In this document: positions 5,602-62,565 of the stretch, piece after piece
How the letters are laid out: each line of letters starts with the position of its first letter
Position numbering within the stretch: the first letter of the stretch is position 1
Assembly (NCBI GenBank): GCA_963666515.2
Contig: OY762897.2
Span: 288,001 to 352,000, forward strand
DNA length: 64,000 nt
Reading direction: 5' to 3'
Source of the DNA: Candidatus Binatia bacterium
Lineage (GTDB): Bacteria > Desulfobacterota > Binatia > UBA9968 > JAJDTQ01
The notes under the pieces: generated by a model
The model's input: only the letters and a program-made list of their open reading frames with translations
The model's database searches: none
Told to the model about the DNA's origin: nothing
Translations under genes and position numbers: made by a program

Positions 5602-7241
5602 GGATCGTGCCCCTCGGGGGTCTGGGAGAGTTCGGCTCCAACATGCTGGCCGTGGAGTGGGGCGACTCCGTGATCGCGGTGGACTGCGGCGTGATGTTCC
5701 CCAGCCCCGAGATGCTGGGCATCGACTTGGTGATCCCCGACATCAGCTACCTGGCGGACCGGGGGAAGGCGCCCCAGGCCATCGTCCTGACCCACGCCCA
5801 CGAAGACCACATCGGCGCGTTGCCCTACGTCCTCCGGCGCTGCCCGGCGCCGGTGTACGGCACGCGCCTGACCCTGGGCTTCGTGCGCCACAAGCTGCGC
5901 GAGCACCGGCTGGAGGAATCCACCGAGCTGGTGGAGATCGTCCCCGGCGAGCGTTTTTCGGTGGGTCCCTTCACGCTCGAAGGGATCCCGGTGACCCACA
6001 GCCTGGTGGACTGCATCGCCCTGGCCATCGAGACGCCGGTCGGGAACATCATCCACACCGGCGACTTCAAGATCGACAACACGCCCATGCCCGGGCAGTG
6101 CTTCGACTTCCACCGTTTCGCGGCCTACGGCGACAAGGGCGTCCTGCTCTTGCTCTCGGACTCCACCAACGTCGAGCGCGCCGGCTGCACGCCCTCGGAG
6201 CGCACCGTGGGAGAGGGGCTTCGGGGGATCTTCGGCGCCAGTCCGGGACGGATCTTCATCGCGACGTTCGCCTCGCACATCCCGCGCATCCAGCAGGTGG
6301 CGGAGCTGGCCGCGGATTTCGGGCGCAAGCTGGTGCTCAGCGGGCGGAGCATCATCAACAACACCGGCATCGCCGCGGACCTGGGCTGCCTCAGCCTGCC
6401 GGACGACGTCATGACCGACAACCAGGACTGGCGCGACGTCGCCGACGACCGGCTCTGCTTCCTCACCACCGGAAGCCAGGGAGAGCCCCTTTCCGTCCTG
6501 CACCGCGTGGCCTTCGACGAGCACCGCTCCATCCGCATCCAGCCGGGGGACACGGTGGTGTTGTCGGCGCGGTTCATACCGGGCAACGAGAAGGTCATCA
6601 GCAACCTCATCGACCACCTCTACCGGCGCGGCGCCCACGTCCACTACGAGCGCACTTCGGAGATCCACGTGTCGGGACACGCCAGCCAAGAAGAGTTGAA
6701 GACCATGATCCAGCTCACGCGTCCGCGCTACTTCGTGCCCGTGCACGGGGAGTTCCGGCAGCTCTGCAAGCACGTCGAGCTGGCCCGGGCGGTGGGCATA
6801 CCCTCGCGGCACTGCTTCCTCCTCGAGAACGGCGACGCGCTGGAGCTTACGGAGCGGGACGCGTGGCGGGCGGCGCCGGTGGCCTCCGGCAAGGTCTTCG
6901 TCGACGGCAAGGGCATCGGCGACGTGGAGGACATCGTCATACGGGACCGCCGGCACCTGAGCGAGGACGGCCTGGTGGTGGCCATGGCGGTGCACCAGCG
7001 CACCGGCGAGGTAGCCGCGGGCCCGGACCTGCTGGCCCGTGGGTTCATGCGCTCGGAGGAAGAGGACGACGTCCTCGGCACCGCCCGGGACTCGCTGCGG
7101 GAGTACCTCGACGGCTGCGGCGCGGAGATGCGCGCCGACTCCGCCGAGCTGAAGGAGGGTATACGCCGGTCGCTGCGGAAGTTCTTCGAGAAGAGGCTGC
7201 ACCGTCGGCCGGTGATCGTGCCCTACGTCATGGAGATGTAG
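5589..7241 (+). CDS. rnj: ribonuclease J
   Basis: PLGGLGEFG, THAHEDHIG, HTGDFK, DSTN, TGSQGEP, HVSGH and PVHGE motifs. Confidence 0.96.
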   Translation: MDTVRIVPLGGLGEFGSNMLAVEWGDSVIAVDCGVMFPSPEMLGIDLVIPDISYLADRGKAPQAIVLTHAHEDHIGALPYVLRRCPAPVYGTRLTLGFVRHKLREHRLEESTELVEIVPGERFSVGPFTLEGIPVTHSLVDCIALAIETPVGNIIHTGDFKIDNTPMPGQCFDFHRFAAYGDKGVLLLLSDSTNVERAGCTPSERTVGEGLRGIFGASPGRIFIATFASHIPRIQQVAELAADFGRKLVLSGRSIINNTGIAADLGCLSLPDDVMTDNQDWRDVADDRLCFLTTGSQGEPLSVLHRVAFDEHRSIRIQPGDTVVLSARFIPGNEKVISNLIDHLYRRGAHVHYERTSEIHVSGHASQEELKTMIQLTRPRYFVPVHGEFRQLCKHVELARAVGIPSRHCFLLENGDALELTERDAWRAAPVASGKVFVDGKGIGDVEDIVIRDRRHLSEDGLVVAMAVHQRTGEVAAGPDLLARGFMRSEEEDDVLGTARDSLREYLDGCGAEMRADSAELKEGIRRSLRKFFEKRLHRRPVIVPYVMEM

Positions 7242-7251
7242 GCGGACGTCC

Positions 7252-9516
7252 ATGCAGAACGGCTCTCGACTCAATCGTGAACTGTGGGGCTCGGTGGTCC
7301 TGGTGGCGGCCTGTTTCGCGGTGCTCAGCCTGGTTTCCTACAGCCCCCTGGACCGTTCCTTCAACGTTCCTTCGGGCGCGCCCGACCCCGTCAACCTGGG
7401 TGGACTGGTGGGGGCCTACCTGGCCGACGCGTTGATGCAGGGGCTGGGCCTGACCGCCTACGTCCTTCCCGCCATCCTGCTGCTGCTCGCCCTCCGTCTG
7501 TTCCGCCGCGACCCCGGCAGGCTGAGAGTCCTCGTGTCTCTCGGATACGGCGTGTTGTTGTGGGGTCTGGCCATCGTGGTCAGCCTGGTGCGCGAAACCG
7601 AGCTGGCGCGGGACGGCGGCGGGGTCCTGGGCGGGTTCTCCAGGGAGTTCCTGACCGAGATGTTCGGCTACGCCGGGACCTGCGTCATCACGGTCTTCCT
7701 GCTGCTGGCCGCGGCCATGCTGATATCCCAGACATCCATGCTGAGCTGGTGGGGCCGCCTCGCGGCGGCCCGGGAGCGGCTTCGTTCCACGCTGGCCGCG
7801 GGGGCGACGTCCACGTGGCGCACCCGGGTGGAGGGGAAGCCGCCCGCCAACCCCAGGAAGGAGCGGGAGTTCAAGGCGCCGCCCATCGTGCTGGAGGAGG
7901 AAGGCCCGAAGGAAGAGCCCCAGACCCCCAAGGGGCGCCGGAAGAAGGCCAGGGCCAAAGCCAGGACCAGGCCCGAAGCCGAGCAGTTCGTCTTCCCCGA
8001 GATCACCGACGGCTACACGTTGCCGTCGACGGCCTTTCTCGATCCCCCGCCGAAGGTGAAGGCGGGCATCGACAAGAGCGCCCTGGAAGCCAATTCCCTG
8101 ATGCTGCAGCGGAAGCTCCAGGACTTCGGCATCGAGGGCGAAGTGCTCGCGGTGAGGCCCGGACCGGTCATCACCGTGTACGAGTTCCGGCCGGCGCCCG
8201 GCGTCATGGTGCGGCGGATCGTGGGCGTGGCGGACGACCTCGCCATGGCCCTCAGCGCCGTCAGCATCCGCATCCTGGCGCCGATCCCGGGGGAGTCCGT
8301 GGTCGGGATCGAGGTGCCCAACACCCGGCGCGAGACGGTCCACCTGAGGGAGGTGCTGGAAGACCCGGTGTACGCGGACTCCGATTCAATGCTTTCCCTG
8401 GCCCTGGGAAAGGACATCTCCGGGGCGCCGTTCGCCGCCGATCTGGCGCGCATGCCGCACCTGCTGGTGGCCGGCGCCACCGGCACGGGCAAGTCCGTGT
8501 CGCTGAACTCGATGATCCTGAGCATCCTGTACAAGGCCACTCCGGATGACGTCCGCTTCATCATGATCGATCCCAAGATGCTGGAGCTGACGCCCTACGA
8601 AGGGCTGCCGCACCTGCTGACCCCGGTGGTGACCGATCCCAAGGAGGCCCGGGCCGCGCTGTTCTGGGCCGTGGAGGAGATGGACCGGCGCTACCGGCTC
8701 ATGCGCGACAAGGGCGCCCGCAACATCGACAACTACAACCGCATCCTGGAAAAGGAACCGCCGCCGGACAGGTCCCGGAGCGGCGCGGGAGGGGACGACG
8801 CTTCTGCGGAGGAGCCGGACGCGGGCGGCGCGCTGGACGGACGCGAAGAGCTGGAGCACGGACGGCTGCCGCGGGTGGTGATCCTCATCGACGAGCTGGC
8901 GGACCTGATGATGTCCGTGGGCCGGGACATCGAGGAGCACATCACGCGGCTGGCCCAGAAGGCGCGCGCCGCCGGCATCCACATGGTGCTGGCGACCCAG
9001 CGGCCGTCGGTGGACGTGATCACCGGGTTGATCAAGGCGAACTTTCCCGCGCGGATCTCGTTCCAGGTGACCTCCCGGGTGGACTCGCGCACCATCCTGG
9101 ACGGCCAGGGCGCCGAGCAGCTCCTGGGGAACGGGGACCTGCTCTTCCTGCCCCCGGGCACGGCCCGGCTGATACGGCTCCACGGCCCCTTCGTCTCGGA
9201 CAGGGAGGTCCGCAAGGTCACCGATTTCATCAAGCAGCAGGGCCGGCCCCAGTACCGCCCGGAGATCATCGAGGCCGGAGCCGGGGACAACGGCGAGTTG
9301 GGCGGCCTGGACGACGACTACGACGAGATGTACGACCAGGCCGTGGCGGTGGTCACCGAGACGCGGCAGGCGTCCATATCCATGGTGCAGCGGCGTTTGC
9401 GGGTGGGTTACAACCGGGCCGCGCGAATGATCGAGAAAATGGAGCGGGACGGCGTGGTGGGGCCGGCGGACGGGGCGAAGCCGCGCGAGGTCCTGGCGCA
9501 GAGGATCGAGGAGTAG
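7252..9516 (+). CDS. ftsK: DNA translocase FtsK
   Basis: N-terminal TM segments, AGATGTGKS, IDELADLMM, ATQRPSVDV, gamma domain QRRLRVGYNRAAR. Confidence 0.97.
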   Translation: MQNGSRLNRELWGSVVLVAACFAVLSLVSYSPLDRSFNVPSGAPDPVNLGGLVGAYLADALMQGLGLTAYVLPAILLLLALRLFRRDPGRLRVLVSLGYGVLLWGLAIVVSLVRETELARDGGGVLGGFSREFLTEMFGYAGTCVITVFLLLAAAMLISQTSMLSWWGRLAAARERLRSTLAAGATSTWRTRVEGKPPANPRKEREFKAPPIVLEEEGPKEEPQTPKGRRKKARAKARTRPEAEQFVFPEITDGYTLPSTAFLDPPPKVKAGIDKSALEANSLMLQRKLQDFGIEGEVLAVRPGPVITVYEFRPAPGVMVRRIVGVADDLAMALSAVSIRILAPIPGESVVGIEVPNTRRETVHLREVLEDPVYADSDSMLSLALGKDISGAPFAADLARMPHLLVAGATGTGKSVSLNSMILSILYKATPDDVRFIMIDPKMLELTPYEGLPHLLTPVVTDPKEARAALFWAVEEMDRRYRLMRDKGARNIDNYNRILEKEPPPDRSRSGAGGDDASAEEPDAGGALDGREELEHGRLPRVVILIDELADLMMSVGRDIEEHITRLAQKARAAGIHMVLATQRPSVDVITGLIKANFPARISFQVTSRVDSRTILDGQGAEQLLGNGDLLFLPPGTARLIRLHGPFVSDREVRKVTDFIKQQGRPQYRPEIIEAGAGDNGELGGLDDDYDEMYDQAVAVVTETRQASISMVQRRLRVGYNRAARMIEKMERDGVVGPADGAKPREVLAQRIEE

Positions 9517-50774: not shown

Positions 50775-52286
<1,512 letters not shown>

Positions 52287-52301
52287 TGGCACGGTGCTTG
52301 C
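52287..52301 (+). promoter_or_regulatory. sigma54 -24/-12 promoter for hsdR
   Basis: TGGCACG-GTGC-TTGC matches TGGCACG-N4-TTGC; begins at the base after the activator stop and lies about 35 nt before the hsdR start. Confidence 0.85.
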
Positions 52302-52335
52302 CTCTAACAATGGTACTGTGGACGAGGAGGATCGG

Positions 52336-55062
52336 GTGAGCCCGCGTGAGAGCGAGGCGGATGCGCGAATCGTCATCGACGAGTTGCTGAGGCAGGCAGG
52401 CTGGGACCCCGCGGACAAGTCGATGGTGGGCACCGAGGTGCCGTCGTCGCAATCGTCCGAGGCCATCGAGCTTGTGGACCGCTCCCGTGCACGGCCTTTC
52501 GAGATGCATGCCCCTGTCTACAATCTCGTGGCGGCGGCCGGGGAGTTCGGCCCGGACATGACCGTGGGAACGACCGCGGAGGAAATCGGCTGGAAAACCG
52601 TCCCCAGCCACGTCCGGCTCACCCGCGACCATTTCGTGGCGCGCGTGGACGGACAGTCCATGGAGCCCACCATCCCCGACCGTTCGTACTGTCTCTTCCG
52701 CACGGACCGGGGAGGGAGCCGCGAAGGCAAGCTCGTCCTCGTCTGGCATCGCGGCTGCTCCGATCCGGGTCTCGGCGGGGAGTTCTCGGTCAAGAAGTAC
52801 ACCAGCGCCAAGGCCGTGGCGCCGGACGGCGACACCTGGAGCCACCGTGAAATCCGGCTGAAGCCGCTCAACCCCGATCCGGCCTACCGCGACCTGGTCT
52901 TCGACCCGGCCGCCGAGGGCGACCTCCGCGTCATCGGCGAGTTCGTCTGCGTCCTGGACACGGCGGAAGGCGCGGAACCCAGACGCGGAAGGGCCGACTA
53001 CGTCCTCTATGACCAGCGCGGACGCCCCTTGGCCGTCATTGAGGCCAAGAAGAACGCCATCAACCCCTACGTCGCCAAGCAACAGGCGCTGCCGTATGCC
53101 AAGGCCCTGGGCGCGCCCTTCATCTTCTTGACCAACGGCGAACTGACCTACTTTTGGGACTACCAGAACGACGACGCCCGCCCCATCGCCGGCTTCTTCT
53201 CCCGCCGCGACCTGGAGCGGATCGTGGAGATGCGGGAACAGCGCAAGCCGCTGGCCACGGTCGATATCCCGGAACACTACATCCGCCAGGGGGAGACCCG
53301 CACGGTGCGGCCGTACCAGGCCGACGCCATGCGCGCCCTCGATCATGCCTTCGAGCTGGGCAAGCGCCGCTTCCTGATCGAGCTTCCGACCGGCACCGGC
53401 AAGACCGACCTCATGTGCCTGTACCTCAAGCGGCTGCTGGACGCCGGCTGGGCCGAGCGAGTCCTCTTCCTGGTAGACCGGGAACAGCTTGCCAAGCAGG
53501 CCATCGAGGCCATCCAGGACATCCTGTCCGCACACTCCAGCTATTGGCTGCGGCCGGGCTCGGCCCGCCAGGAACAGCAGATCACCGTCGCGCTGCTCCA
53601 GACCATGATCGGGCGAGTGGACGAATACACCGCCGGCTACTTCGACGTCGTTATCGCCGACGAGTGCCATCGCTCCATCTACGGCTCCTGGCAGACGGCA
53701 TTGACCCGGTTCGACGCGCTCCACATCGGCCTCACCGCCACGCCGGCGAGCTACATCGAGCGCAACACCTACGACTTCTACCAGTGCGAGCCCGGCAAGC
53801 CCGACGTGTCCTATCCGCTGAAGGAGGCCTTCCGCGACAAGTACCTGGTGCCGTACCGGTTCGCGACGGGCATCACCGAGATCGTGGCGGAAGGGGCCGA
53901 CGTGGACGACGAACACTACGACCCCGCCGAGTTCGAGCGCCGCTGGACCAACGCGGAGACGAACCGCCTGATGATGGAGGAGTTCGATCACCTCGCGTGG
54001 GAAAACTTCAAGGAGCTAGCGCCCGGCCAGGACCCCGGACCCGGCAAGGCCATCGTCTTCGCCATCACCAAGCACCATGCCGCGCGCCTGGCCCAGTACC
54101 TGAACGAGCTTCACCCCGAACACAAGGGCCGGTACGCGGAAGTCATCACCTCCGACGTGGCCGATCCGGACGCCTTGATACGGAAGTTCAAGAGGGAGAC
54201 CTATCCCATGGTGGCGGTCAGCGTTGGCATGCTCGACACTGGCTTCGACTGCCGGGAGGTGCTGCATCTGGTCCTGTGCCGCCGCGTACGGAGCCCCATT
54301 CTCTACCAGCAGATGCGCGGCCGCGGCACCCGCACCGCGCCGCACATCGGCAAGCAGCAGTTCGTGATCTACGACTTCTTCAAGAACCACGAGTACTTCA
54401 ACGACAGCGACGGCGGCGGGGTCACCGGCACGGGAGGCGGACACGCGCCGGACGGCCCCACGACGCCGCCGGAGCCGCCTCCTGCCCTTGTCGAGCTTGG
54501 CCTCGAAGACGAATGGCTCGAAGCCGTCACCTACATCGAGGTCGGTCCCGAGGGCGAGCGCGTCGACAAGAAAGAGTACGTGACCCACTGGGTGGAGACC
54601 ATCCGCTCCCAGGCAGCGGATGATCCGCTGCTCCGCAAGGTGCGGGACGAAGAGCCGCTGGAGCCGGACGAGGAAGAGGAACTCGCGCGGCGCCTCAACC
54701 GGCCCGAGCGCTACTTCAACGAGGACAACCTCCGGCGCGCCTACCGCGACCCGGGAGGCAGCCTCGTGGACTTCATCCGCGCGGCCCTCGGGCGGCTGCA
54801 CATCAAGAGCCGAGAGGAAAAACTGGAAGAGACCTTCCGCGCGTGGCTCGTCGCGCGTTCCCTCACGCCGCAGCAGGCCGAGTACCTCTGTCTGCTGAAG
54901 AACCGCGGCATCGCCACCGGGCGGGTCAGCCTCAGCGACCTCTTCGAGCCGCCGCTGTCGATTCTCGATGCCGCCGGCAAGGGTGTAGAATTGTTCGGGG
55001 AAGAGGGTCTAAAGGAAGTGGTCGCGCGGCTCAATGAAGATGTCTTCAGGGCCGCCGGTTGA
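52336..55062 (+). CDS. hsdR: type I restriction subunit R (EcoEI/EcoAI-like) with inserted S24 peptidase domain
   Basis: EADAR..ID.LL..AGW, GRADYVL...VIEAK, LTNG, PTGTGKT, DECHRS, GLTATP, MLDTGFD, QMRGRGTR; GAGGAGG RBS before GTG 52336. Confidence 0.92.
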   Translation: MSPRESEADARIVIDELLRQAGWDPADKSMVGTEVPSSQSSEAIELVDRSRARPFEMHAPVYNLVAAAGEFGPDMTVGTTAEEIGWKTVPSHVRLTRDHFVARVDGQSMEPTIPDRSYCLFRTDRGGSREGKLVLVWHRGCSDPGLGGEFSVKKYTSAKAVAPDGDTWSHREIRLKPLNPDPAYRDLVFDPAAEGDLRVIGEFVCVLDTAEGAEPRRGRADYVLYDQRGRPLAVIEAKKNAINPYVAKQQALPYAKALGAPFIFLTNGELTYFWDYQNDDARPIAGFFSRRDLERIVEMREQRKPLATVDIPEHYIRQGETRTVRPYQADAMRALDHAFELGKRRFLIELPTGTGKTDLMCLYLKRLLDAGWAERVLFLVDREQLAKQAIEAIQDILSAHSSYWLRPGSARQEQQITVALLQTMIGRVDEYTAGYFDVVIADECHRSIYGSWQTALTRFDALHIGLTATPASYIERNTYDFYQCEPGKPDVSYPLKEAFRDKYLVPYRFATGITEIVAEGADVDDEHYDPAEFERRWTNAETNRLMMEEFDHLAWENFKELAPGQDPGPGKAIVFAITKHHAARLAQYLNELHPEHKGRYAEVITSDVADPDALIRKFKRETYPMVAVSVGMLDTGFDCREVLHLVLCRRVRSPILYQQMRGRGTRTAPHIGKQQFVIYDFFKNHEYFNDSDGGGVTGTGGGHAPDGPTTPPEPPPALVELGLEDEWLEAVTYIEVGPEGERVDKKEYVTHWVETIRSQAADDPLLRKVRDEEPLEPDEEEELARRLNRPERYFNEDNLRRAYRDPGGSLVDFIRAALGRLHIKSREEKLEETFRAWLVARSLTPQQAEYLCLLKNRGIATGRVSLSDLFEPPLSILDAAGKGVELFGEEGLKEVVARLNEDVFRAAG

Positions 55063-55072
55063 AGAGGAGTCC

Positions 55073-56722
55073 ATGGACCAGACACTGCGACGCAAGCTCG
55101 ATCACATCACCGACGTTCTGTGGGCTGGGGGTGTGACCAACCCGGTCACCTACATCGAGCAGATTTCCTACCTCATCTACCTGAAGCTCCTGGACGAGGA
55201 GGAGTCCGAGCGCGAGCTTAGAGGCCGCCTCGGAGTCGGCAACGGCGCCAGCCTCTTCCCTCGTCAAGCCGCCCGTTTCCGCTGGTCCAAGTGGCGTTTC
55301 CAGAGCGGCGAGGGGCTCCGCAACTTCGTTCGGGACGAGGTCTTCCCCTACATGGCCTCCCTGGTGAAAGACGAACCCCATGTGGCCGACTATTTCCGCG
55401 ACGCCGTACTCGAAATCGTCGATCCCAACGTGCTGAAGCAGGTCATCGACGAACTGGACTCCATCGATTTCCGCAAGCTCGGTCCCGACATCAAGGGCGA
55501 CATCTTCGAGTACCTGCTCACGCATCTCGGCCAGTCGGCACTCAACGGCCAGTTCCGGACGCCACGCCAGATCCGCGCCTTCATGGTCCAGATGGTCGAT
55601 CCGGATCTGGGCGATACAGTCTATGATCCGGCCTGCGGGACGGCCGGCTTCCTCATTGATGTGGTGGATCACATTCTCGCTCGCTACAGCGAGGAGCCCA
55701 AGGAAACCCCCATCTATGGCGAGGACTGGCTGGAGAAGCGCGAGCAGACACTGGATGAGGCGAAGAAGGAGATTCCAAACCTTCAGACTTATAGAAAGGG
55801 AGCAGGGGAGAAGATACCAGACTGGCGTCGCCTTGAGGCATCCATCTACGGCACCGACGTGTCACGCCAGATGATGCGGATCGCCTCGATGAACCTCGTG
55901 CTCCATGGCATCCGCCGCGCCAACCTCAAACGCGGCAATGTCCTTTCCGAGATGGGCGGCCTCACCGAAGACGACCTGAACCGCCGGTACTCGGTGATTC
56001 TTTCCAACCCTCCCTTCGCTGGGCAAATTCCGGCGGGATCCATTCGTCAGGACTTGCCGTCGAAGTCCAAGAAGAGCGAGCTTTTGTTCCTCGCCCTCAT
56101 GTTGCGGTCACTTGCCCCAGGCGGGCGTTGTGCCGTGGTGGTGCCCGAGGGGGCGCTCTTCGGCTCGACCAAGGCGCATAAGGAACTTCGCGGGAAGTTG
56201 CTACGAGAATATGAGGTGCAGGCAGTGGTTTCGCTGCCTTCCGGCGTGTTCAAGCCCTACGCCGGTGTCAAGACTTCTGTCCTTGTGATTCGCCGTCCTA
56301 CAATGGGGCCGGACGAGGGGCAGATCGGCACCAAACAGGTCTGGTTCTATGAGGTAGGTAACGACGGCTACGACCCGGACAAAATCCAAGGCGGCGGTCG
56401 CCCTGAGACGCCGGACAAAAACGACATCCCCGGCATGTTGGCAGCATGGGCTGACTACAAGGCGTCACGCTTCCAGGAGCCGCCGGGTGTGGAGACTGGT
56501 GTTTTTCTTGACGCCGGATGTGTGGAGCCACGCTGCTGGTGGGCGCCCTTCGAGACTATCGTGGACAGCGACTTCGATTTGGCCGCCTCTCGCTACAAGC
56601 CGCGCATCGGCCAAGAGTTTCCAGAGGAGGACCCCGTTGAATTGATCCGTGAGGTTCTCGCAATTGAGGAAGAGATTACGAGCGGGCTGGAAGCGCTGCT
56701 GAGTGAGGTTGAAGGCACGTGA
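55073..56722 (+). CDS. hsdM: type I methyltransferase subunit
   Basis: GGVTNP...IEQ, GQFRTPR, DPACGTAGFL, NPPF, VFKPYAGV. Confidence 0.95.
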   Translation: MDQTLRRKLDHITDVLWAGGVTNPVTYIEQISYLIYLKLLDEEESERELRGRLGVGNGASLFPRQAARFRWSKWRFQSGEGLRNFVRDEVFPYMASLVKDEPHVADYFRDAVLEIVDPNVLKQVIDELDSIDFRKLGPDIKGDIFEYLLTHLGQSALNGQFRTPRQIRAFMVQMVDPDLGDTVYDPACGTAGFLIDVVDHILARYSEEPKETPIYGEDWLEKREQTLDEAKKEIPNLQTYRKGAGEKIPDWRRLEASIYGTDVSRQMMRIASMNLVLHGIRRANLKRGNVLSEMGGLTEDDLNRRYSVILSNPPFAGQIPAGSIRQDLPSKSKKSELLFLALMLRSLAPGGRCAVVVPEGALFGSTKAHKELRGKLLREYEVQAVVSLPSGVFKPYAGVKTSVLVIRRPTMGPDEGQIGTKQVWFYEVGNDGYDPDKIQGGGRPETPDKNDIPGMLAAWADYKASRFQEPPGVETGVFLDAGCVEPRCWWAPFETIVDSDFDLAASRYKPRIGQEFPEEDPVELIREVLAIEEEITSGLEALLSEVEGT

Positions 56723-57954
56723 ACCCCTGGCATACCCAGCCAATCGGAGCTGTCTGTACACCGACCGAGCAGCGTGATCCTCGGGACGGTTCCGCGGGGG
56801 AGTTTCGATATGTCGACATCACCGGGATCGACCGCGTTCGCAAGAGGATCGCAGAATCCCGCACCATCCCTTGTGCAGATGCTCCGGGTCGGGCACGCAA
56901 GGTCATCCGGAAAGACGATGTACTTGTATCTACCGTTCGTCCAAACCTCAACGCGGTCGCGATGGTACCTGAGGAATTGGATGGCGAGATCGCCTCGACG
57001 GGATTCTGCGTTCTGCGTGCGAATAGAGAACTGCTTGATCCTCGATATCTGTTCTACCGCGTCATCTCTACCGATTTCGTTAAAGAGCTAACCTCGAAGG
57101 TAAGAGGCGCCAACTATCCAGCAGTATCTGATGCAGAAGTAAATAGAGTGGACATCCCGGTCCCCACCCTCTCCGAACAGCATCGCATCGTCGAGATCCT
57201 CGACCAAGCCGATCACCTCCGCCGGCTTCGCGCTGAAGTCGACGCCAAAGCCGATGGAATCCTCCCCGCAATCTTCCTCAGGATGTTCGGCGACCCTGCC
57301 ACGAACCCGATGAAGTGGCAGAAGTGTGCGCTTCATGAATTGGCGACCATTACGACTGGCAACACCCCCTCACGTAGGAGACCCGAGTACTACGGAGAGT
57401 TCATTGAATGGGTCAAGTCAGACAATCTCAATACCGCATCTCATTACGTTACTACAGCCGCAGAGGGCCTCTCGAACCTTGGGGCAAAAGTCGCCCGGAC
57501 GGTGCCTGCGGGGTCCACGCTCGTGACGTGTATCGCAGGTAGTCCAGGTGCCATTGGTAATTCGGCCTTGGCTGACCGAGAGGTTGCGTTTAATCAGCAA
57601 ATCAATGCCGCGACACCTAAGCTTGGCGTAGATAGCTGGTTTCTCTACGGGCAGTTCCTTGCCGGAAAGCGCCTTGTCCAGGATGCCTCGACAGGCGGGA
57701 TGAAGGGACTAGTATCGAAGCATCGCTTCAGCAGAATCGAGTTCATGGTGCCACCACTTGACTTGCAGAGGGACTTCGGACGGCACTGCAACCGCCTTTG
57801 CAATCAAAAGCAGGTACGCTTGAGAGAAGTTAGGCGGTTCAACAGACTGTTCGATATCCTGGTGGTTCGCGCCTTTTCAGGTAAGCTAACAGAGTCCTGG
57901 CGGGAAAGGAGTTTTTCAGGAGTTGGGGCAAAAAAAGCTAGCTCGACAAGGTGA
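56719..57954 (+). CDS. hsdS: type I specificity subunit
   Basis: Two TRDs with PTLSEQ.RIV and PPLDLQ conserved regions, MFGDPATNP; GTGA overlap with hsdM. Confidence 0.93.
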   Translation: MNPWHTQPIGAVCTPTEQRDPRDGSAGEFRYVDITGIDRVRKRIAESRTIPCADAPGRARKVIRKDDVLVSTVRPNLNAVAMVPEELDGEIASTGFCVLRANRELLDPRYLFYRVISTDFVKELTSKVRGANYPAVSDAEVNRVDIPVPTLSEQHRIVEILDQADHLRRLRAEVDAKADGILPAIFLRMFGDPATNPMKWQKCALHELATITTGNTPSRRRPEYYGEFIEWVKSDNLNTASHYVTTAAEGLSNLGAKVARTVPAGSTLVTCIAGSPGAIGNSALADREVAFNQQINAATPKLGVDSWFLYGQFLAGKRLVQDASTGGMKGLVSKHRFSRIEFMVPPLDLQRDFGRHCNRLCNQKQVRLREVRRFNRLFDILVVRAFSGKLTESWRERSFSGVGAKKASSTR

Positions 57955-58038: not shown

Positions 58039-61000
58039 ATGACACTTCCAGGTGGATCCGCAAATAAGCTTGGCAACCGCTATGAGGAGTTATGGACCGT
58101 ATGGGTATTGGTCCGTATGCTCCACGATGATGCCGAATCGATTCGGATCGAGGACCCGGGGACTGAGAAAGCCGAATTCGTAGTGACGTTGGCCTCCCAT
58201 CGAGAGCTGCATCAGGTGAAACGTGGCCACCGAGACGGTAAGTGGAGCCTCAAGGATCTCGGGGCGACCGATGGCGGACTACTTCATGTAATCGGGCAAC
58301 AACTAGCAGGCAATAGCGACCGATTTGTTTTTGCGTCAAGCAGTGACGCCGCGGTGTTGCGCAATTTGTGCGAGGAGGCGAGTGCCGCAGAATCGATTGA
58401 GGAGTTCAAGCGATGGTTTCTCGAGGCTGGAGATAAGAAGGAAGGATTCAAGACGCTTCAGGAGTGTTGGGGGTGTGATGTCTCCACCGCATTTGATCTC
58501 CTGCGGCGGATAGATGTCCAAACTATCGACGAGGCTGCACTCAAAGAGAAGTTGCTGTTGGGGGTTGAGGCCCTGTTCTTGGCGGATCCTCAGAAGGTCC
58601 TTGTCGAATTACGTGCCATAGTAAGGGATTCAGTACATCAGACGATTATCCGCGAAGGACTCGTCGACGCTCTCAAACAGCGCGGTTATCAGCTACGTCG
58701 GTTAACCAGCAGTCAACGGGCACGGGACGCTGTCAAGGCTGCGACCGATCAGTACCTGCACGGTGCGAAGATACAACTCATTCAGCATAGGCTCCTTCCG
58801 CGGCCGTCGACGACAATGCTGCTGGCGGGCCTGGAGGGACCTGCGACGGACCATGTCCTGACCGGTGGTGCAGGCTCAGGGAAGACAGCTTGCGTCGTCG
58901 AGGTTGTGGAGGCGGTGCGAGAGAGGGGACTGCCTGTGTTGGCGTTCCGGCTCGACCGCCTTCCCGCGCTATCAACGACGGAAGCTCTTGGACGCCAACT
59001 CGATCTTGAGGAGTCGCCGGTCCTTGTACTTGCGGCAGCGGCACAGACCGCCGGAGTCCCTGGCCTATTGATTGTGGATCAGTTGGATGCCGTCAGCACC
59101 ATGTCGGGCAGGAGTTCTGGTGCCTTCGATCTGGTCGAGCGGTTGCTTCACGAGGCGCGAGGTACTCGCACACGGGCCACTATCCACACCGTCGTCGTTT
59201 GCCGAGCCTTCGACTGGAGAAATGATTCACGGCTGCGGCGGCTCCTGCCTGACGAACACGGACAAGTCGACGTTACCGAGTTCACGGATGAGGAGGTCAG
59301 GGAGTTTCTGACTAATGCGGGTTTTGACACGGCGTGGTTCCGGTCAGGTCAACTGGAGTTGCTCCGGCTTCCGCAAAACCTCTCGCTTTTTCTTGAGGCT
59401 GGTTTTGACACGCGTCTCGCGCCAGCTTTCCGGACGGCGACGGATCTATTTAGTCGATACTGGGATGAAAAGCGACGGTCGGTCGCCGATCGAGTCGTAC
59501 CATCCGCTGACCAGTGGATGGAGGTTATGGAAATTCTATGCGAAGAGATGACCTCCACTCAGCAGCTATCAGTAGCCAAAGAGAGACTTGACACGATTCC
59601 GATCAGCTACTTGGACCAACTGGCGTCGGAGGGCGTGGTTACGTTTGACGGGCGCCGTTACGGGTTCGGTCACGAGAGCTTCTTCGACTATTGCTTCGCC
59701 CGAGTGTTCTTCAATCGGTCGGATTCGCTCGTGTCCTTCCTCAAGGGGCCAGACCAGCATCTGTTCCGTCGCGCTCAGGTTCGGCAGGTGCTGGCCTATC
59801 TACGTGACGCAGATTCTGTGCGTTACATTCAGGAACTTCACAGCCTGCTCTCGGATGAGGGAATACGGGTCCATCTCAAGGATCTAGCTTTTGCGCTTCT
59901 TGCCGCAGTCGTGGATCCGACCGAGGAAGAGTGGACCATCTGGCAAGAATGGCTTGCACCGGCGCTCAGCGCCATCGAGGGTGGGCTTCGCAACGCGAAC
60001 AAACTGTCTGAATTGGCGTGGCGGCGGTTTTTTGGCGCACCCTCGTGGTTTGATGTCGCCGATCACCGCGGCTTGGTCGAGGCTTGGCTGGCCTCAGATA
60101 ACGGTGAACTTGCAAACACTGCATTGAACTACTTGAGGTTGCATCAAGGCAATTCGCCGGATCGCGTTGCAGCCTTGCTCGAACCATATGCCGACTGTGG
60201 TGGTCAGTGGAAGGTGAGGCTTCGATTCTTTATGGAATCGGCCGACCATCACACGAGTCGTCGCGTGTTTGACCTGTTTCTCCGTCTCGTGGACAACGGT
60301 ACACTCGACGAAGCCCGCGGGTCGAGGGCGGTGAACGGTACATTCTGGGACATGCTCCATGATCTCGGCGAAAACCGTCCAGAGTGGGTTCCGGAGGTGC
60401 TAGCCCATGTGCTCCGGCGGCGCCTTGCGATAGTCCGGGCCGCCGGGGAAGATCTACGCAAACCGGATCTCCTTGGTTACGACGCCTCTGCCGCAGAGAT
60501 GTTAGGGAAGTCCGCGAAATCCGCTCCCGCCGTGTTCGTGAAGCACGTGCTGCCTTTGGTTCTCGATATTTCGGAGGCAACCGTCCTTCCCGGTGGAGAA
60601 CCACCAAAACACGATGTTGTGTGGTCGTATCTTATCAAGACGGAGCATCCCAGGGGCGAGGATGCGTGTCTTTCGGGATTGGTCGCAGCGATCGGTGCAC
60701 TGGCGCGTGATGGTACAGCAAATTTACGCGACATTGTCGCTGACCTGCGCAGTCGCGACACACACATCGCAAACCACTTGTTGCTTGCCCTTTACGCTGG
60801 CGGTGCCGCACACTACGCGGACGAAGCGATTTCGTTGCTTTGTGATCAACCATGGCGGTTCCAATGTGGGTTTTCTGACAGCCCGGTTTGGTGCGCGATG
60901 GAACTCATCAAGGTAGTGCTTCCGCACTGCACCGTCGAGAGTCGCGAAAGGCTCGAAGATGTGCTCCTTCGTTACGCCGCACCTTTCGAGCGCAGTAGTG

Positions 61001-62565
61001 CCGGTTACAAATTCGCTGGAGAGACGCGATTTAACCTGCTCTCGGCTTTCCCCGTAAAGCAACGCAGCGCTCGGGTGAACAAGCACTTGCAGGAGTTGTT
61101 TCGAAAATTCGGTGAACCGCAAGGCGTGCCAACACTGCCTGTCGCGGGTTGGGTGGGTTCGCCGATCGCGAAGAGCGCCGTGTATAGAATGACCGACGAG
61201 CAGTGGTTGCGGGCCATCGCCAAGTACCGCTCTGAGTACCCGACACACTTCGGGCCGGGTGATCTCAGAGGCGGTGCTACGCAATTGGCACAAGAACTCG
61301 AAACCAGGGTCAAGGAGGAACCAGATCGGTTTGCTCGCCTCAGTCTGAGGTTTCCTCCAGGAACTAACCCTGTATATCTGGAATTGACGCTCTCCGCATT
61401 GAAGGGCGCCGAGGTGGCAAGCACTCTCAAACTTGAGGTCTGTCGCAAGGCCTTTGCGGATTCACGCGGGTCATGCGGCAGGTCGATTGTCGCTTTACTT
61501 GGATCCATTGAAGGCCCGCTTCCGAATGATGCTGTCGAAATGCTCGGTTGGCTAGCGATCGATCACGAAGACCCTGTCGAAGAGTTATGGCAAAAGGATG
61601 CTGGTGGTGGTCACCCCGACTATAATGGCGATGTCCAAATGGACGGCATTAACACTACACGGGGGAGAGCAGCCGACGCTATTCGGGCTCTCATCCTTGC
61701 CGACGTGACCTATGTCGAACGGTTTCGTCCAGCTCTCGAACGAATGATCAGGGACCGGAGTGCGGCTGTTCTTTCCCGTATTGCAGGTACGCTACAGGCC
61801 GTAGCGTACCATGATTCTGCACTTGCTCTGTCGCTTTTCCTTTGCATGGATCTATCCGAGGAACGACTGCTTGCAACACGGTACGTCTACGGGTTTATTC
61901 ATGGCAACCTGCGAGACAGCTTTGGTCAACTGCGGCCAATTGTCGAACGGATGCTCCGATCGTCCGAACCGAAGGTCGCTACGGCGGGCGCACGACTGGC
62001 AAGCCTTGCGGCGGTGGATCACGATGGTGCCGGGATCCTCGCCGTAGAGGCCGTCTCTGGGAGCCCGGATCAACGTCTCGGAGTTGCTCAAGTTGCAGCC
62101 GCAAATATTGGCGTCCCTCGGTGTCGCTCCTGGTGCGAAGAGACGCTTCGTGCACTGTTTGACGACTCCCACGTCGACGTGAGGGTCGAAGCGGCGGCAT
62201 GTTTCAGCAATCTGCCCGACGACACACTCGATACCTTTGGTAATCTGATTGAGGCATTCAGCGTCAGCGCCGCCTTTCGGGAGGACTCGTTCTCGATCTT
62301 TCATGCACTGGAGGCTTCACTGGGCCGCTTGCCGGGGATGACGTGTGCGGTCTGCGAGAAGTTCCTGGATCGCTTTGCAAAAGAGGCCAGAGACATGCGA
62401 ACGTGTCAGGCCGGGGACACCTTTACTCTCACGAAGTTGATTTTCAGGATCTACCAGCAACACCAGAACGATGAATGGACGTCACGTTCGCTGGACCTTA
62501 TAGATCGCCTTTGCCTGGAAGGAATTGGCGACACAGCACAACAGTTTGAGGAGTTCGAGCGCTAA
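58039..62565 (+). CDS. Avs/AVAST-like STAND NTPase with N-terminal PD-(D/E)xK-type nuclease and helical sensor region
   Basis: GNRYE...EF...HQVK; Walker A GGAGSGKT, Walker B LIVDQLDAVS, FGHESFFDY; long helical C-terminus. Confidence 0.75.
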   Translation: MTLPGGSANKLGNRYEELWTVWVLVRMLHDDAESIRIEDPGTEKAEFVVTLASHRELHQVKRGHRDGKWSLKDLGATDGGLLHVIGQQLAGNSDRFVFASSSDAAVLRNLCEEASAAESIEEFKRWFLEAGDKKEGFKTLQECWGCDVSTAFDLLRRIDVQTIDEAALKEKLLLGVEALFLADPQKVLVELRAIVRDSVHQTIIREGLVDALKQRGYQLRRLTSSQRARDAVKAATDQYLHGAKIQLIQHRLLPRPSTTMLLAGLEGPATDHVLTGGAGSGKTACVVEVVEAVRERGLPVLAFRLDRLPALSTTEALGRQLDLEESPVLVLAAAAQTAGVPGLLIVDQLDAVSTMSGRSSGAFDLVERLLHEARGTRTRATIHTVVVCRAFDWRNDSRLRRLLPDEHGQVDVTEFTDEEVREFLTNAGFDTAWFRSGQLELLRLPQNLSLFLEAGFDTRLAPAFRTATDLFSRYWDEKRRSVADRVVPSADQWMEVMEILCEEMTSTQQLSVAKERLDTIPISYLDQLASEGVVTFDGRRYGFGHESFFDYCFARVFFNRSDSLVSFLKGPDQHLFRRAQVRQVLAYLRDADSVRYIQELHSLLSDEGIRVHLKDLAFALLAAVVDPTEEEWTIWQEWLAPALSAIEGGLRNANKLSELAWRRFFGAPSWFDVADHRGLVEAWLASDNGELANTALNYLRLHQGNSPDRVAALLEPYADCGGQWKVRLRFFMESADHHTSRRVFDLFLRLVDNGTLDEARGSRAVNGTFWDMLHDLGENRPEWVPEVLAHVLRRRLAIVRAAGEDLRKPDLLGYDASAAEMLGKSAKSAPAVFVKHVLPLVLDISEATVLPGGEPPKHDVVWSYLIKTEHPRGEDACLSGLVAAIGALARDGTANLRDIVADLRSRDTHIANHLLLALYAGGAAHYADEAISLLCDQPWRFQCGFSDSPVWCAMELIKVVLPHCTVESRERLEDVLLRYAAPFERSSAGYKFAGETRFNLLSAFPVKQRSARVNKHLQELFRKFGEPQGVPTLPVAGWVGSPIAKSAVYRMTDEQWLRAIAKYRSEYPTHFGPGDLRGGATQLAQELETRVKEEPDRFARLSLRFPPGTNPVYLELTLSALKGAEVASTLKLEVCRKAFADSRGSCGRSIVALLGSIEGPLPNDAVEMLGWLAIDHEDPVEELWQKDAGGGHPDYNGDVQMDGINTTRGRAADAIRALILADVTYVERFRPALERMIRDRSAAVLSRIAGTLQAVAYHDSALALSLFLCMDLSEERLLATRYVYGFIHGNLRDSFGQLRPIVERMLRSSEPKVATAGARLASLAAVDHDGAGILAVEAVSGSPDQRLGVAQVAAANIGVPRCRSWCEETLRALFDDSHVDVRVEAAACFSNLPDDTLDTFGNLIEAFSVSAAFREDSFSIFHALEASLGRLPGMTCAVCEKFLDRFAKEARDMRTCQAGDTFTLTKLIFRIYQQHQNDEWTSRSLDLIDRLCLEGIGDTAQQFEEFER

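Follow-up and report, generated by a model that had tools for sequence, protein, structure and literature searches.

The 64,000-nucleotide stretch of a Candidatus Binatia bacterium genome analyzed here (the window; contig OY762897.2, positions 288,001 to 352,000) encodes a type I restriction-modification locus whose restriction subunit, HsdR, is interrupted within its nuclease domain by a predicted LexA-type S24 autoprotease module. The gene lies in a single reading frame that is open throughout from 52057 to 55062. The start of hsdR was placed at the GTG codon at 52336, which fits both the ribosome-binding site GAGGAGGA at 52324-52331 and the N-termini of the homologs ('M..RESEADARI...'); so numbered, residue n of HsdR begins at 52336+3(n-1). 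The features of the locus are collected in Table 1.

HsdR combines a PD-(D/E)xK motif, a superfamily 2 (SF2) motor and an EcoEI_R_C domain with neighboring hsdM and hsdS genes, which are the attributes of a type I R subunit, and PADLOC labels it REase_I (E 6e-87). Pfam matches above the cut-offs cover residues 323-471 (ResIII), 569-666 (Helicase_C) and 746-901 (EcoEI_R_C). The best NCBIfam match is to EcoAI/FtnUII, at 258.7 bits against an equivalog cut-off of 550 bits; to judge from this score, HsdR is related to EcoAI at the family level and is not an EcoAI equivalog.

Table 1. Features of the S24-bearing hsdR locus, in positions of the window
Feature	Position	Strand	Remarks
RtcR-like sigma-54 activator	50775-52286		Upstream of hsdR; CARF-type N-terminus; assigned from domain matches
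Sigma-54 type -24/-12 element	52287-52301	+	TGGCAC-N5-TTGC, TGGCACGGTGCTTGC; starts at the base after the activator stop, about 50 nt before hsdR
hsdR	52336-55062	+	908 aa plus stop; EcoAI/EcoEI-like type I R subunit carrying the insert
HsdR residues 1-35	52336-52440	+	PD-(D/E)xK nuclease helix 1 (7-20) and strand 1 (31-37); E7, R11, D15, W23 and E34 invariant
Inserted S24 module, residues 36-215 (about 180 aa)	52441-52980	+	Linker, cleavage-site strand and catalytic core
Cleavage-site strand, residues 58-69	52507-52542	+	HAPVYNLVAAA/G (slash, predicted cut); predicted scissile bond Ala68-Gly69 at 52537-52542
Ser108 (GQSMEP)	52657-52659	+	Predicted nucleophile; lines up with the GESM serine in the host LexA
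First clade-specific insertion, residues 138-145	52747-52770	+	D143 and G147 conserved
Lys153 (SVKKY)	52792-52794	+	Predicted general base; lines up with the IKR lysine in the host LexA
Second clade-specific insertion, residues 156-170	52801-52845	+	Near-invariant S157, K159, W168 and H170
Rest of nuclease, residues 216-300	52981-53235	+	Strand 2 with Asp221 (52996); strand 3 with Glu236-x-Lys238 (53041-53049)
hsdM	55034-56722	+	Pfam N6_Mtase and HsdM_N; overlaps the 3' end of hsdR
hsdS	56719-57954	+	Pfam Methylase_S, two stretches

The extent of the insert is defined by relatives that lack it. In these proteins the segment '...GWDPxxKSQVxTE' joins 'G(R/F)ADYVL' through just 5-43 linker residues, and because they pass straight from one to the other we take residues 36-215 of HsdR as the insert. 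The invariant nuclease residues of the N-terminal piece were read from an alignment that takes in these insert-free relatives, and in the same alignment D221, E236 and K238 are invariant as well. The Pfam HSDR_N match is confined to residues 214-280, which correspond to positions 122-196 of a profile of 198. In an AlphaFold2 model of residues 1-300 (predicted local distance difference test score, pLDDT, 75.6), a helix at 7-20 and a strand at 31-37 are followed by the insert, and the insert by strands at 218-225 and 231-237, a helix at 244-258 and more strands. The order is the canonical one for a PD-(D/E)xK nuclease, and the insert is modeled as sitting in the beta1-beta2 hairpin. The segments that join it to the nuclease, 39-43 and 209-216, are of low confidence in the model, consistent with flexible linkers, and with the insert placed in a hairpin on such linkers the uncleaved nuclease is predicted to fold normally. 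A Foldseek search with the 1-300 model matched LexA structures together with a fragment of Vibrio vulnificus HsdR (3h1t).

Both sequence and structure comparisons assign the insert to the S24 family. Pfam places Peptidase_S24 (PF00717) at residues 89-203 with 28.5 bits against a cut-off of 23.3 (E 1.3e-6). Modeled alone by AlphaFold2 from a 60-row alignment, the insert reached a pLDDT of 84.7 and a predicted template modeling score (pTM) of 0.82, and the best Foldseek matches in the PDB were LexA C-domains (1jhe, 3k2z, 8gms, 8trg), lambda cI (8gmu, 2ho0) and UmuD or UmuD' (8gmt, 1umu, 1ay9). All of these LexA, cI and UmuD' matches had a Foldseek probability of 1.00 and template modeling scores, normalized to the target, of 0.64-0.78; the nearest ESM Atlas clusters were all 'Peptidase S24-like'. 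From the models, the insert has the S24 beta-barrel fold. When residues 1-255 were compared with the PDB by sequence alone, there was no S24- or HsdR-related match (four matches, E 0.56-0.91).

Three other identities for the insert were considered and rejected. Kinship to the signal peptidases (S26) fails because those structures rank far below LexA, at E 0.03 and weaker. HsdR is not a LexA ortholog in the sense of TIGR00498, since it is absent from the TIGR00498 matches and no helix-turn-helix family appears in its Pfam scan; the genome's own LexA is encoded elsewhere (G000:C1:2510917-2511480, 147.1 bits). Nor is the insert a duplicate of that LexA, to which the hidden Markov model (HMM) of the S24 clade described below gives just 21 bits.

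The module had been recognized in a preliminary description made from the DNA letters and their translated reading frames, and its account of the architecture holds. The S24 fold is supported by Pfam, AlphaFold2 and Foldseek together, the extent of about 180 residues (36-215) agrees with the insert-free relatives, and the nuclease is indeed split between helix 1/strand 1 and the Asp221 strand. The positions given for Ala68-Gly69, Ser108, Lys153, Asp221 and Glu236-Ala-Lys238 are all correct, as are the distances of 39 residues from Gly to Ser and 45 from Ser to Lys, and the LexA numbering behind the comparison (G85, S119, K156) agrees with the titles of PDB entries.

The preliminary description had made conservation of the Ser, Lys and Ala-Gly residues among homologs a test of its proposal, and the conservation is pronounced. 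In the 120 closest homologs, S108 and K153 are each present in 120/120, A68 in 116/120 and G69 in 119/120. Among wider representatives (150 at 50% identity, 112 of them carrying the domain), S108 is found in 103 of 105 covered rows and K153 in 99 of 100, with a mild bias in those two columns only, since the seed sequences of the HMM behind these counts had been selected by their Ser and Lys motifs; no such bias affects the 120 close homologs. Position 68 of the representatives is Ala in 94/104 and Cys in 8/104 (one or the other in 102/104), Cys-Gly being the UmuD-type cleavage site, and position 69 is Gly in 92/104, Thr in 7 and Ser in 5. The consensus ahead of the cut across the clade is L-x-A-A-A followed by Gly. 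These frequencies show strong purifying selection on both the dyad and the cut site.

An HsdR with an S24 module inside its nuclease is widespread. Of 8000 candidates scored in a search with residues 1-300, 1637 proteins reached E<=1e-3; the best 120 of them are 74-100% identical, and the clade HMM finds the domain in all 120. In species-representative genomes we located 30 loci, 63-88% identical over the insert, in Candidatus Binatia, Latescibacterota, Acidobacteriota, Planctomycetota, Gammaproteobacteria and Spirochaetia, among others, and including one Microbispora and one Thermoplasmatota metagenome-assembled genome (MAG). The order of N-terminal piece, S24 domain and remainder of HsdR is kept in 30/30. 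This disposes of a chimeric assembly, which the preliminary description had named as a possible undoing of its proposal, and of a mispredicted frame: the frame is single and open, the arrangement is colinear in 30 of 30 independent assemblies from many phyla, and the domain is present in 120/120 of the closest proteins. hsdM follows hsdR in 26 of the 30 loci, and three of the remaining four end within or just after hsdR. Three loci (L029, L032 and L016) yielded partial matches to the part of hsdR that follows the insert, covering residues 2-312, 286-692 and 3-383 of a 693-residue query, and their hsdR copies may be disrupted or rearranged. In the class to which the window belongs the clade domain occurs in 14/201 genomes, and in its own genus in 5/11 other genomes; patchy occurrence is usual for defense genes.

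How many close relatives have the insert, and how many lack it, was asked by ranking HsdRs on residues 216-716 only, which make up the motor region. The nearest 120 are 84-100% identical, and comprise 95 with the whole insert, seven gene calls that begin inside the S24 domain, 17 that are insert-free and one that is N-terminally truncated, so that the count of homologs with and without the module stands at 95 whole against 17 insert-free. The seven calls (P0273, P0275, P0277, P0279, P0281, P0292 and P0299) start at an internal Met within the S24 domain, which hides the N-terminal nuclease piece, and because they begin inside that domain these HsdRs too had the insert. One of them, P0275, is how the Microbispora MAG is publicly annotated, whereas its locus (L021) does encode the N-terminal piece upstream. 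In the 17 insert-free proteins the N-terminus is intact, and the linkers, of 6-43 residues, are of at least six different kinds. For P0276, P0134, P0274, P0280, P0282 and P0286 the motors are 84-91% identical and the linkers are short and mutually unrelated; P0274, of 754 aa, is listed under the name Deferrisoma palaeochoriense. Two linkers retain what look like leftovers of the cleavage strand, 'TEVHAP...' in P0276 and 'AGGGFG' in P0134, which suggests repeated deletion of the S24 core. Another insert-free protein, P0272 (870 aa), has a six-residue hairpin and an extra Pfam family, PF10625, seen in none of the other 119 listed.

A FastTree phylogeny of the HsdR core (122 tips), rooted on two distant insert-free HsdRs, requires at least seven changes of insert state; P0046 and P0297, in which the anchor motif could not be located, were left out of it. 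In a midpoint-rooted FastTree phylogeny of the S24 domain, 13 HsdR inserts form one clade with a support of 0.997, nested among the other members. The simplest history would be one capture followed by several losses, and these are quick trees and not tests of that history. On the same comparisons, the S24 module is accessory to HsdR.

The S24 domain of HsdR belongs to a distinct clade that is also attached to other defense enzymes. A search for representatives gave 2959 matches at E<=1e-3, and insert residues of approximately 40-207 have counterparts, at 40-50% identity, in proteins of 150-1878 residues. The domain lies 25 residues or fewer from the C-terminus in 87 of the 94 representatives with a complete domain. 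According to Pfam and PADLOC, the hosts are SLFN-g3/DUF2075 helicases with NERD or GIY-YIG heads (Nhi/AbiO-like), an McrC-like protein, a type IV restriction helicase, a NERD+UvrD protein, a type IIG/DrmMI-like methyltransferase, a DruE-like helicase of 1878 residues, type ISP enzymes and a type III-like Res. Thirty long representatives included eight with ResIII, seven with the SLFN-g3 helicase and four with Type_ISP_C, with one each for the HindI-type HsdR C-domain, AlwI, McrBC, UvrD, MTase and MZB with MTES_1575. Stand-alone short members of approximately 195-213 residues also occur. To judge from their domain matches, the partners of the module in this sample are restriction or defense enzymes that target DNA, and the occurrence of one S24 type on so many enzymes argues for a general regulatory module and not a peculiarity of HsdR.

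Two insertions set the clade apart when it is aligned with the host LexA and two further S24 proteins of the host genome. The first (residues 138-145) explains why Ser and Lys lie 45 residues apart. Under the clade HMM, HsdR reaches 205.9 bits and the host LexA 21 bits, and nothing else in the genome was matched. In a phage collection there was no match at E 1e-8. In a plasmid collection there was one, on a 1.8-Mb replicon of the cultured Halomonas sp. PA16-9 (NZ_CP040452.1, L040), where a DUF2075-like frame of 686 aa (5998-8058) and a module of the clade (7989-8468) occupy 5998-8468 in different frames that overlap by about 70 nt; the region is unannotated in the record, and may represent a frameshifted gene or a sequencing error. 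In five genomes of the window's own genus (G065, G073, G081, G169 and G181), the domain is found in frames of about 1870-2350 aa, which is a DruE-like size, and of about 1050-1200 aa; the several frame sizes imply that several different enzymes bear the module there.

Transcription of the locus appears to be under a control of its own. The RtcR-like activator is encoded upstream of the S24-bearing hsdR in 14 of the 30 related loci, and in 12 of the 30 a strict -24/-12 element precedes hsdR by about 50-60 nt; 10 of these 12 are among the 14 that have the activator. As both are confined to a minority of the loci, the S24 insert is independent of this transcriptional gate; in the window the gate and the insert are stacked as two controls. 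Downstream of hsdS, positions 58039-62565 encode a 1508-aa STAND/NACHT-like NTPase, for which the Pfam matches are weak and NCBIfam gives none. Sequences related to its N-terminal part (67-77% identity) come after hsdS in L008, L010, L012 and L015, and relatives of its C-terminal end occur in L016 and L023.

We propose that this HsdR carries a built-in proteolytic fuse, a damage-triggered off-switch that would leave an L-x-A-A-A C-terminus on the first 68 residues. The proposal is drawn by analogy with LexA, and we give it a probability of about 45%. A signal of the DNA-damage type, most likely the RecA filament on single-stranded DNA (ssDNA) that acts on LexA, UmuD and cI, would trigger the module to break the Ala68-Gly69 bond of its own chain. 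Cleavage there would part residues 1-68, with helix 1/strand 1 and E7, R11, D15, W23 and E34, from the strands that bear D221 and E236-x-K238. The 68-residue piece would gain a new C-terminus, ...L-V-A-A-A, that resembles the C-degrons for ClpXP found in LexA-like proteins, and its removal or loss would disable DNA cleavage with the methyltransferase unaffected. The outcome would be a self-contained form of restriction alleviation. Where the module forms the C-terminal tail of an enzyme, it is the enzyme that would be left with the ...AAA end by such a cut.

The genome encodes RecA, ClpX and a separate LexA. PMC10584840 describes latent ClpX recognition signals that are revealed by LexA cleavage, and PMC5742171 reports that LexA-like proteins embed ClpXP-dependent C-degrons right beside the cleavage site. 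The alleviation of EcoKI restriction is attributed, in PMC11109961, to ClpXP proteolysis of HsdR, for which LexA cleavage is not needed. A predicted complex of the insert with two copies of the genome's RecA scored 0.01 (mark 0.32), a result that speaks neither for nor against binding.

Several points weigh against the off-switch. The RecA trigger in HsdR is an argument by analogy only, and the clade insertions with S157, K159, W168 and H170 could bind another activator. The cleaved helix 1/strand 1 could remain bound non-covalently, in which case the nuclease would stay active unless the piece were removed. The degron is a matter of sequence resemblance only, the seeding bias noted above touches the two dyad columns of the representative counts, and the 17 natural insert-free relatives show that the enzyme needs no module.

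The alternative that survives best keeps the self-cleavage and changes the trigger, which might be a phage protein, free ssDNA, an HsdR motor that stalls or collides, pH or a small ligand, or might be replaced by constitutive maturation. We consider this unlikely, though it should be kept in view. In its favor are the two insertions relative to the genome's own LexA, with near-invariant D143, S157, K159, W168 and H170, and the distance between 21 bits for the host LexA and 205.9 for HsdR under the clade HMM, and a RecA-independent LexA-like protein is on record in PMC7101444. Set against this, the best structural matches are all to proteins that respond to RecA*, and the partner enzymes, when they misfire, make exactly the lesions that load RecA.

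A second alternative reverses the sign of the switch: the uncleaved S24 domain would restrain the nuclease, sterically or through strain on the hairpin, and self-cleavage triggered by RecA*/ssDNA would free it, as in the conversion of UmuD to UmuD', the signal coming from phage replication or DNA injury. UmuD itself belongs to the S24 family and becomes active on cleavage, and UmuD' is among the fold matches of the insert. The cut in the C-terminal fusions would also free the enzyme of its S24 domain, which fits the removal of an inhibitor as well as it fits exposure of a degron, and with the operon behind a sigma-54 activator in 14/30 loci, signal-gated deployment is already a theme of the locus. 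We nevertheless regard arming as improbable. Classical restriction enzymes are constitutive on unmodified DNA and need restraint, not activation; the nuclease core forms normally in the AlphaFold2 model, with the insert on low-confidence linkers; the insert-free relatives with motors 84-91% identical indicate that the backbone is that of a normal HsdR; and the conserved L-x-A-A-A ahead of the cut is left unexplained.

There is little to recommend a purely non-proteolytic role, in which the module would serve for dimerization or for docking to RecA filaments, DNA or a second HsdR with the chain uncut: the C-domains of LexA, cI and UmuD' do also dimerize and there are two HsdR subunits in a type I complex, but retention of Ser, Lys and Ala/Cys-Gly across very different architectures, with Ser missing in just 2/105 rows and Lys in 1/100, is hard to explain without catalysis.

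If the off-switch operates in HsdR, it may operate more widely. It is possible, and we suggest it tentatively, that the S24 clade is a portable DNA-damage fuse of prokaryotic immunity, carried by approximately 10 classes of DNA-targeting defense enzymes: type I, ISP, IIG, IIS, III-like, IV, McrC-like, Nhi-like, NERD-UvrD and DruE-like. On a RecA*/ssDNA signal, self-cleavage would give the enzyme, or the first 68 residues of the nuclease, an ssrA-like ...L-x-A-A-A end, and the enzyme would be destroyed or disabled before it attacked a damaged and transiently unmodified chromosome. The module would be a brake on autoimmunity at the level of the protein, and at the locus in the window this brake would be stacked on the sigma-54/CARF-type transcriptional gate.

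Type I enzymes need restraint after DNA damage and recombination, which create unmodified sites on self DNA. To our knowledge, the only well-understood mechanism of restraint is the degradation of translocating HsdR by ClpXP in E. coli. If our reading is true, a LexA-type module in HsdR would be a second, direct and portable solution to the same problem, and its presence on many unrelated restriction and defense enzymes would point to a general link between immune nucleases and the DNA-damage signal. The insert-free relatives, with motors that are 84-91% identical, are ready natural controls. Searches of the open-access literature and bioRxiv turned up no account of an S24 domain within HsdR or attached to restriction or defense enzymes, although subscription journals and supplementary tables may hold one; the occurrences of 'S24' in Millman et al. 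are table numbers and not the domain.

Placed beside known systems, the module resembles the C-domains of LexA, UmuD and lambda cI (MEROPS S24, PF00717) in its predicted fold, in the Ser-Lys dyad, in the Ala-Gly/Cys-Gly site ahead of the core and in the order of these elements. Unlike LexA, the module in HsdR has no DNA-binding domain and is set inside another domain instead of forming a C-terminal half; it also has the extra segments 138-145 and 156-170 and a Ser-to-Lys distance of 45, and its self-cleavage and dependence on RecA* are put forward by analogy. The protein around it resembles the EcoAI/EcoEI-type (type IB-like) HsdRs, with a PD-(D/E)xK nuclease, an SF2 motor, an EcoEI_R_C domain and downstream hsdM and hsdS. 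The proposed proteolytic loss of HsdR function when self DNA is at risk would parallel the ClpXP-dependent alleviation of EcoKI described in PMC11109961. In contrast to that system, HsdR would contain the protease, and the signal would reach it directly and not through translocation on unmodified self DNA. A further likeness is to the S24 domains of the SLFN-g3/DUF2075 and type IV helicase enzymes, which belong to the same clade at 40-50% identity and share the two insertions and the L-x-A-A-A/G site. In those enzymes the module is mostly C-terminal, whereas in HsdR it lies within the catalytic nuclease, so that the cut would break the nuclease fold itself.

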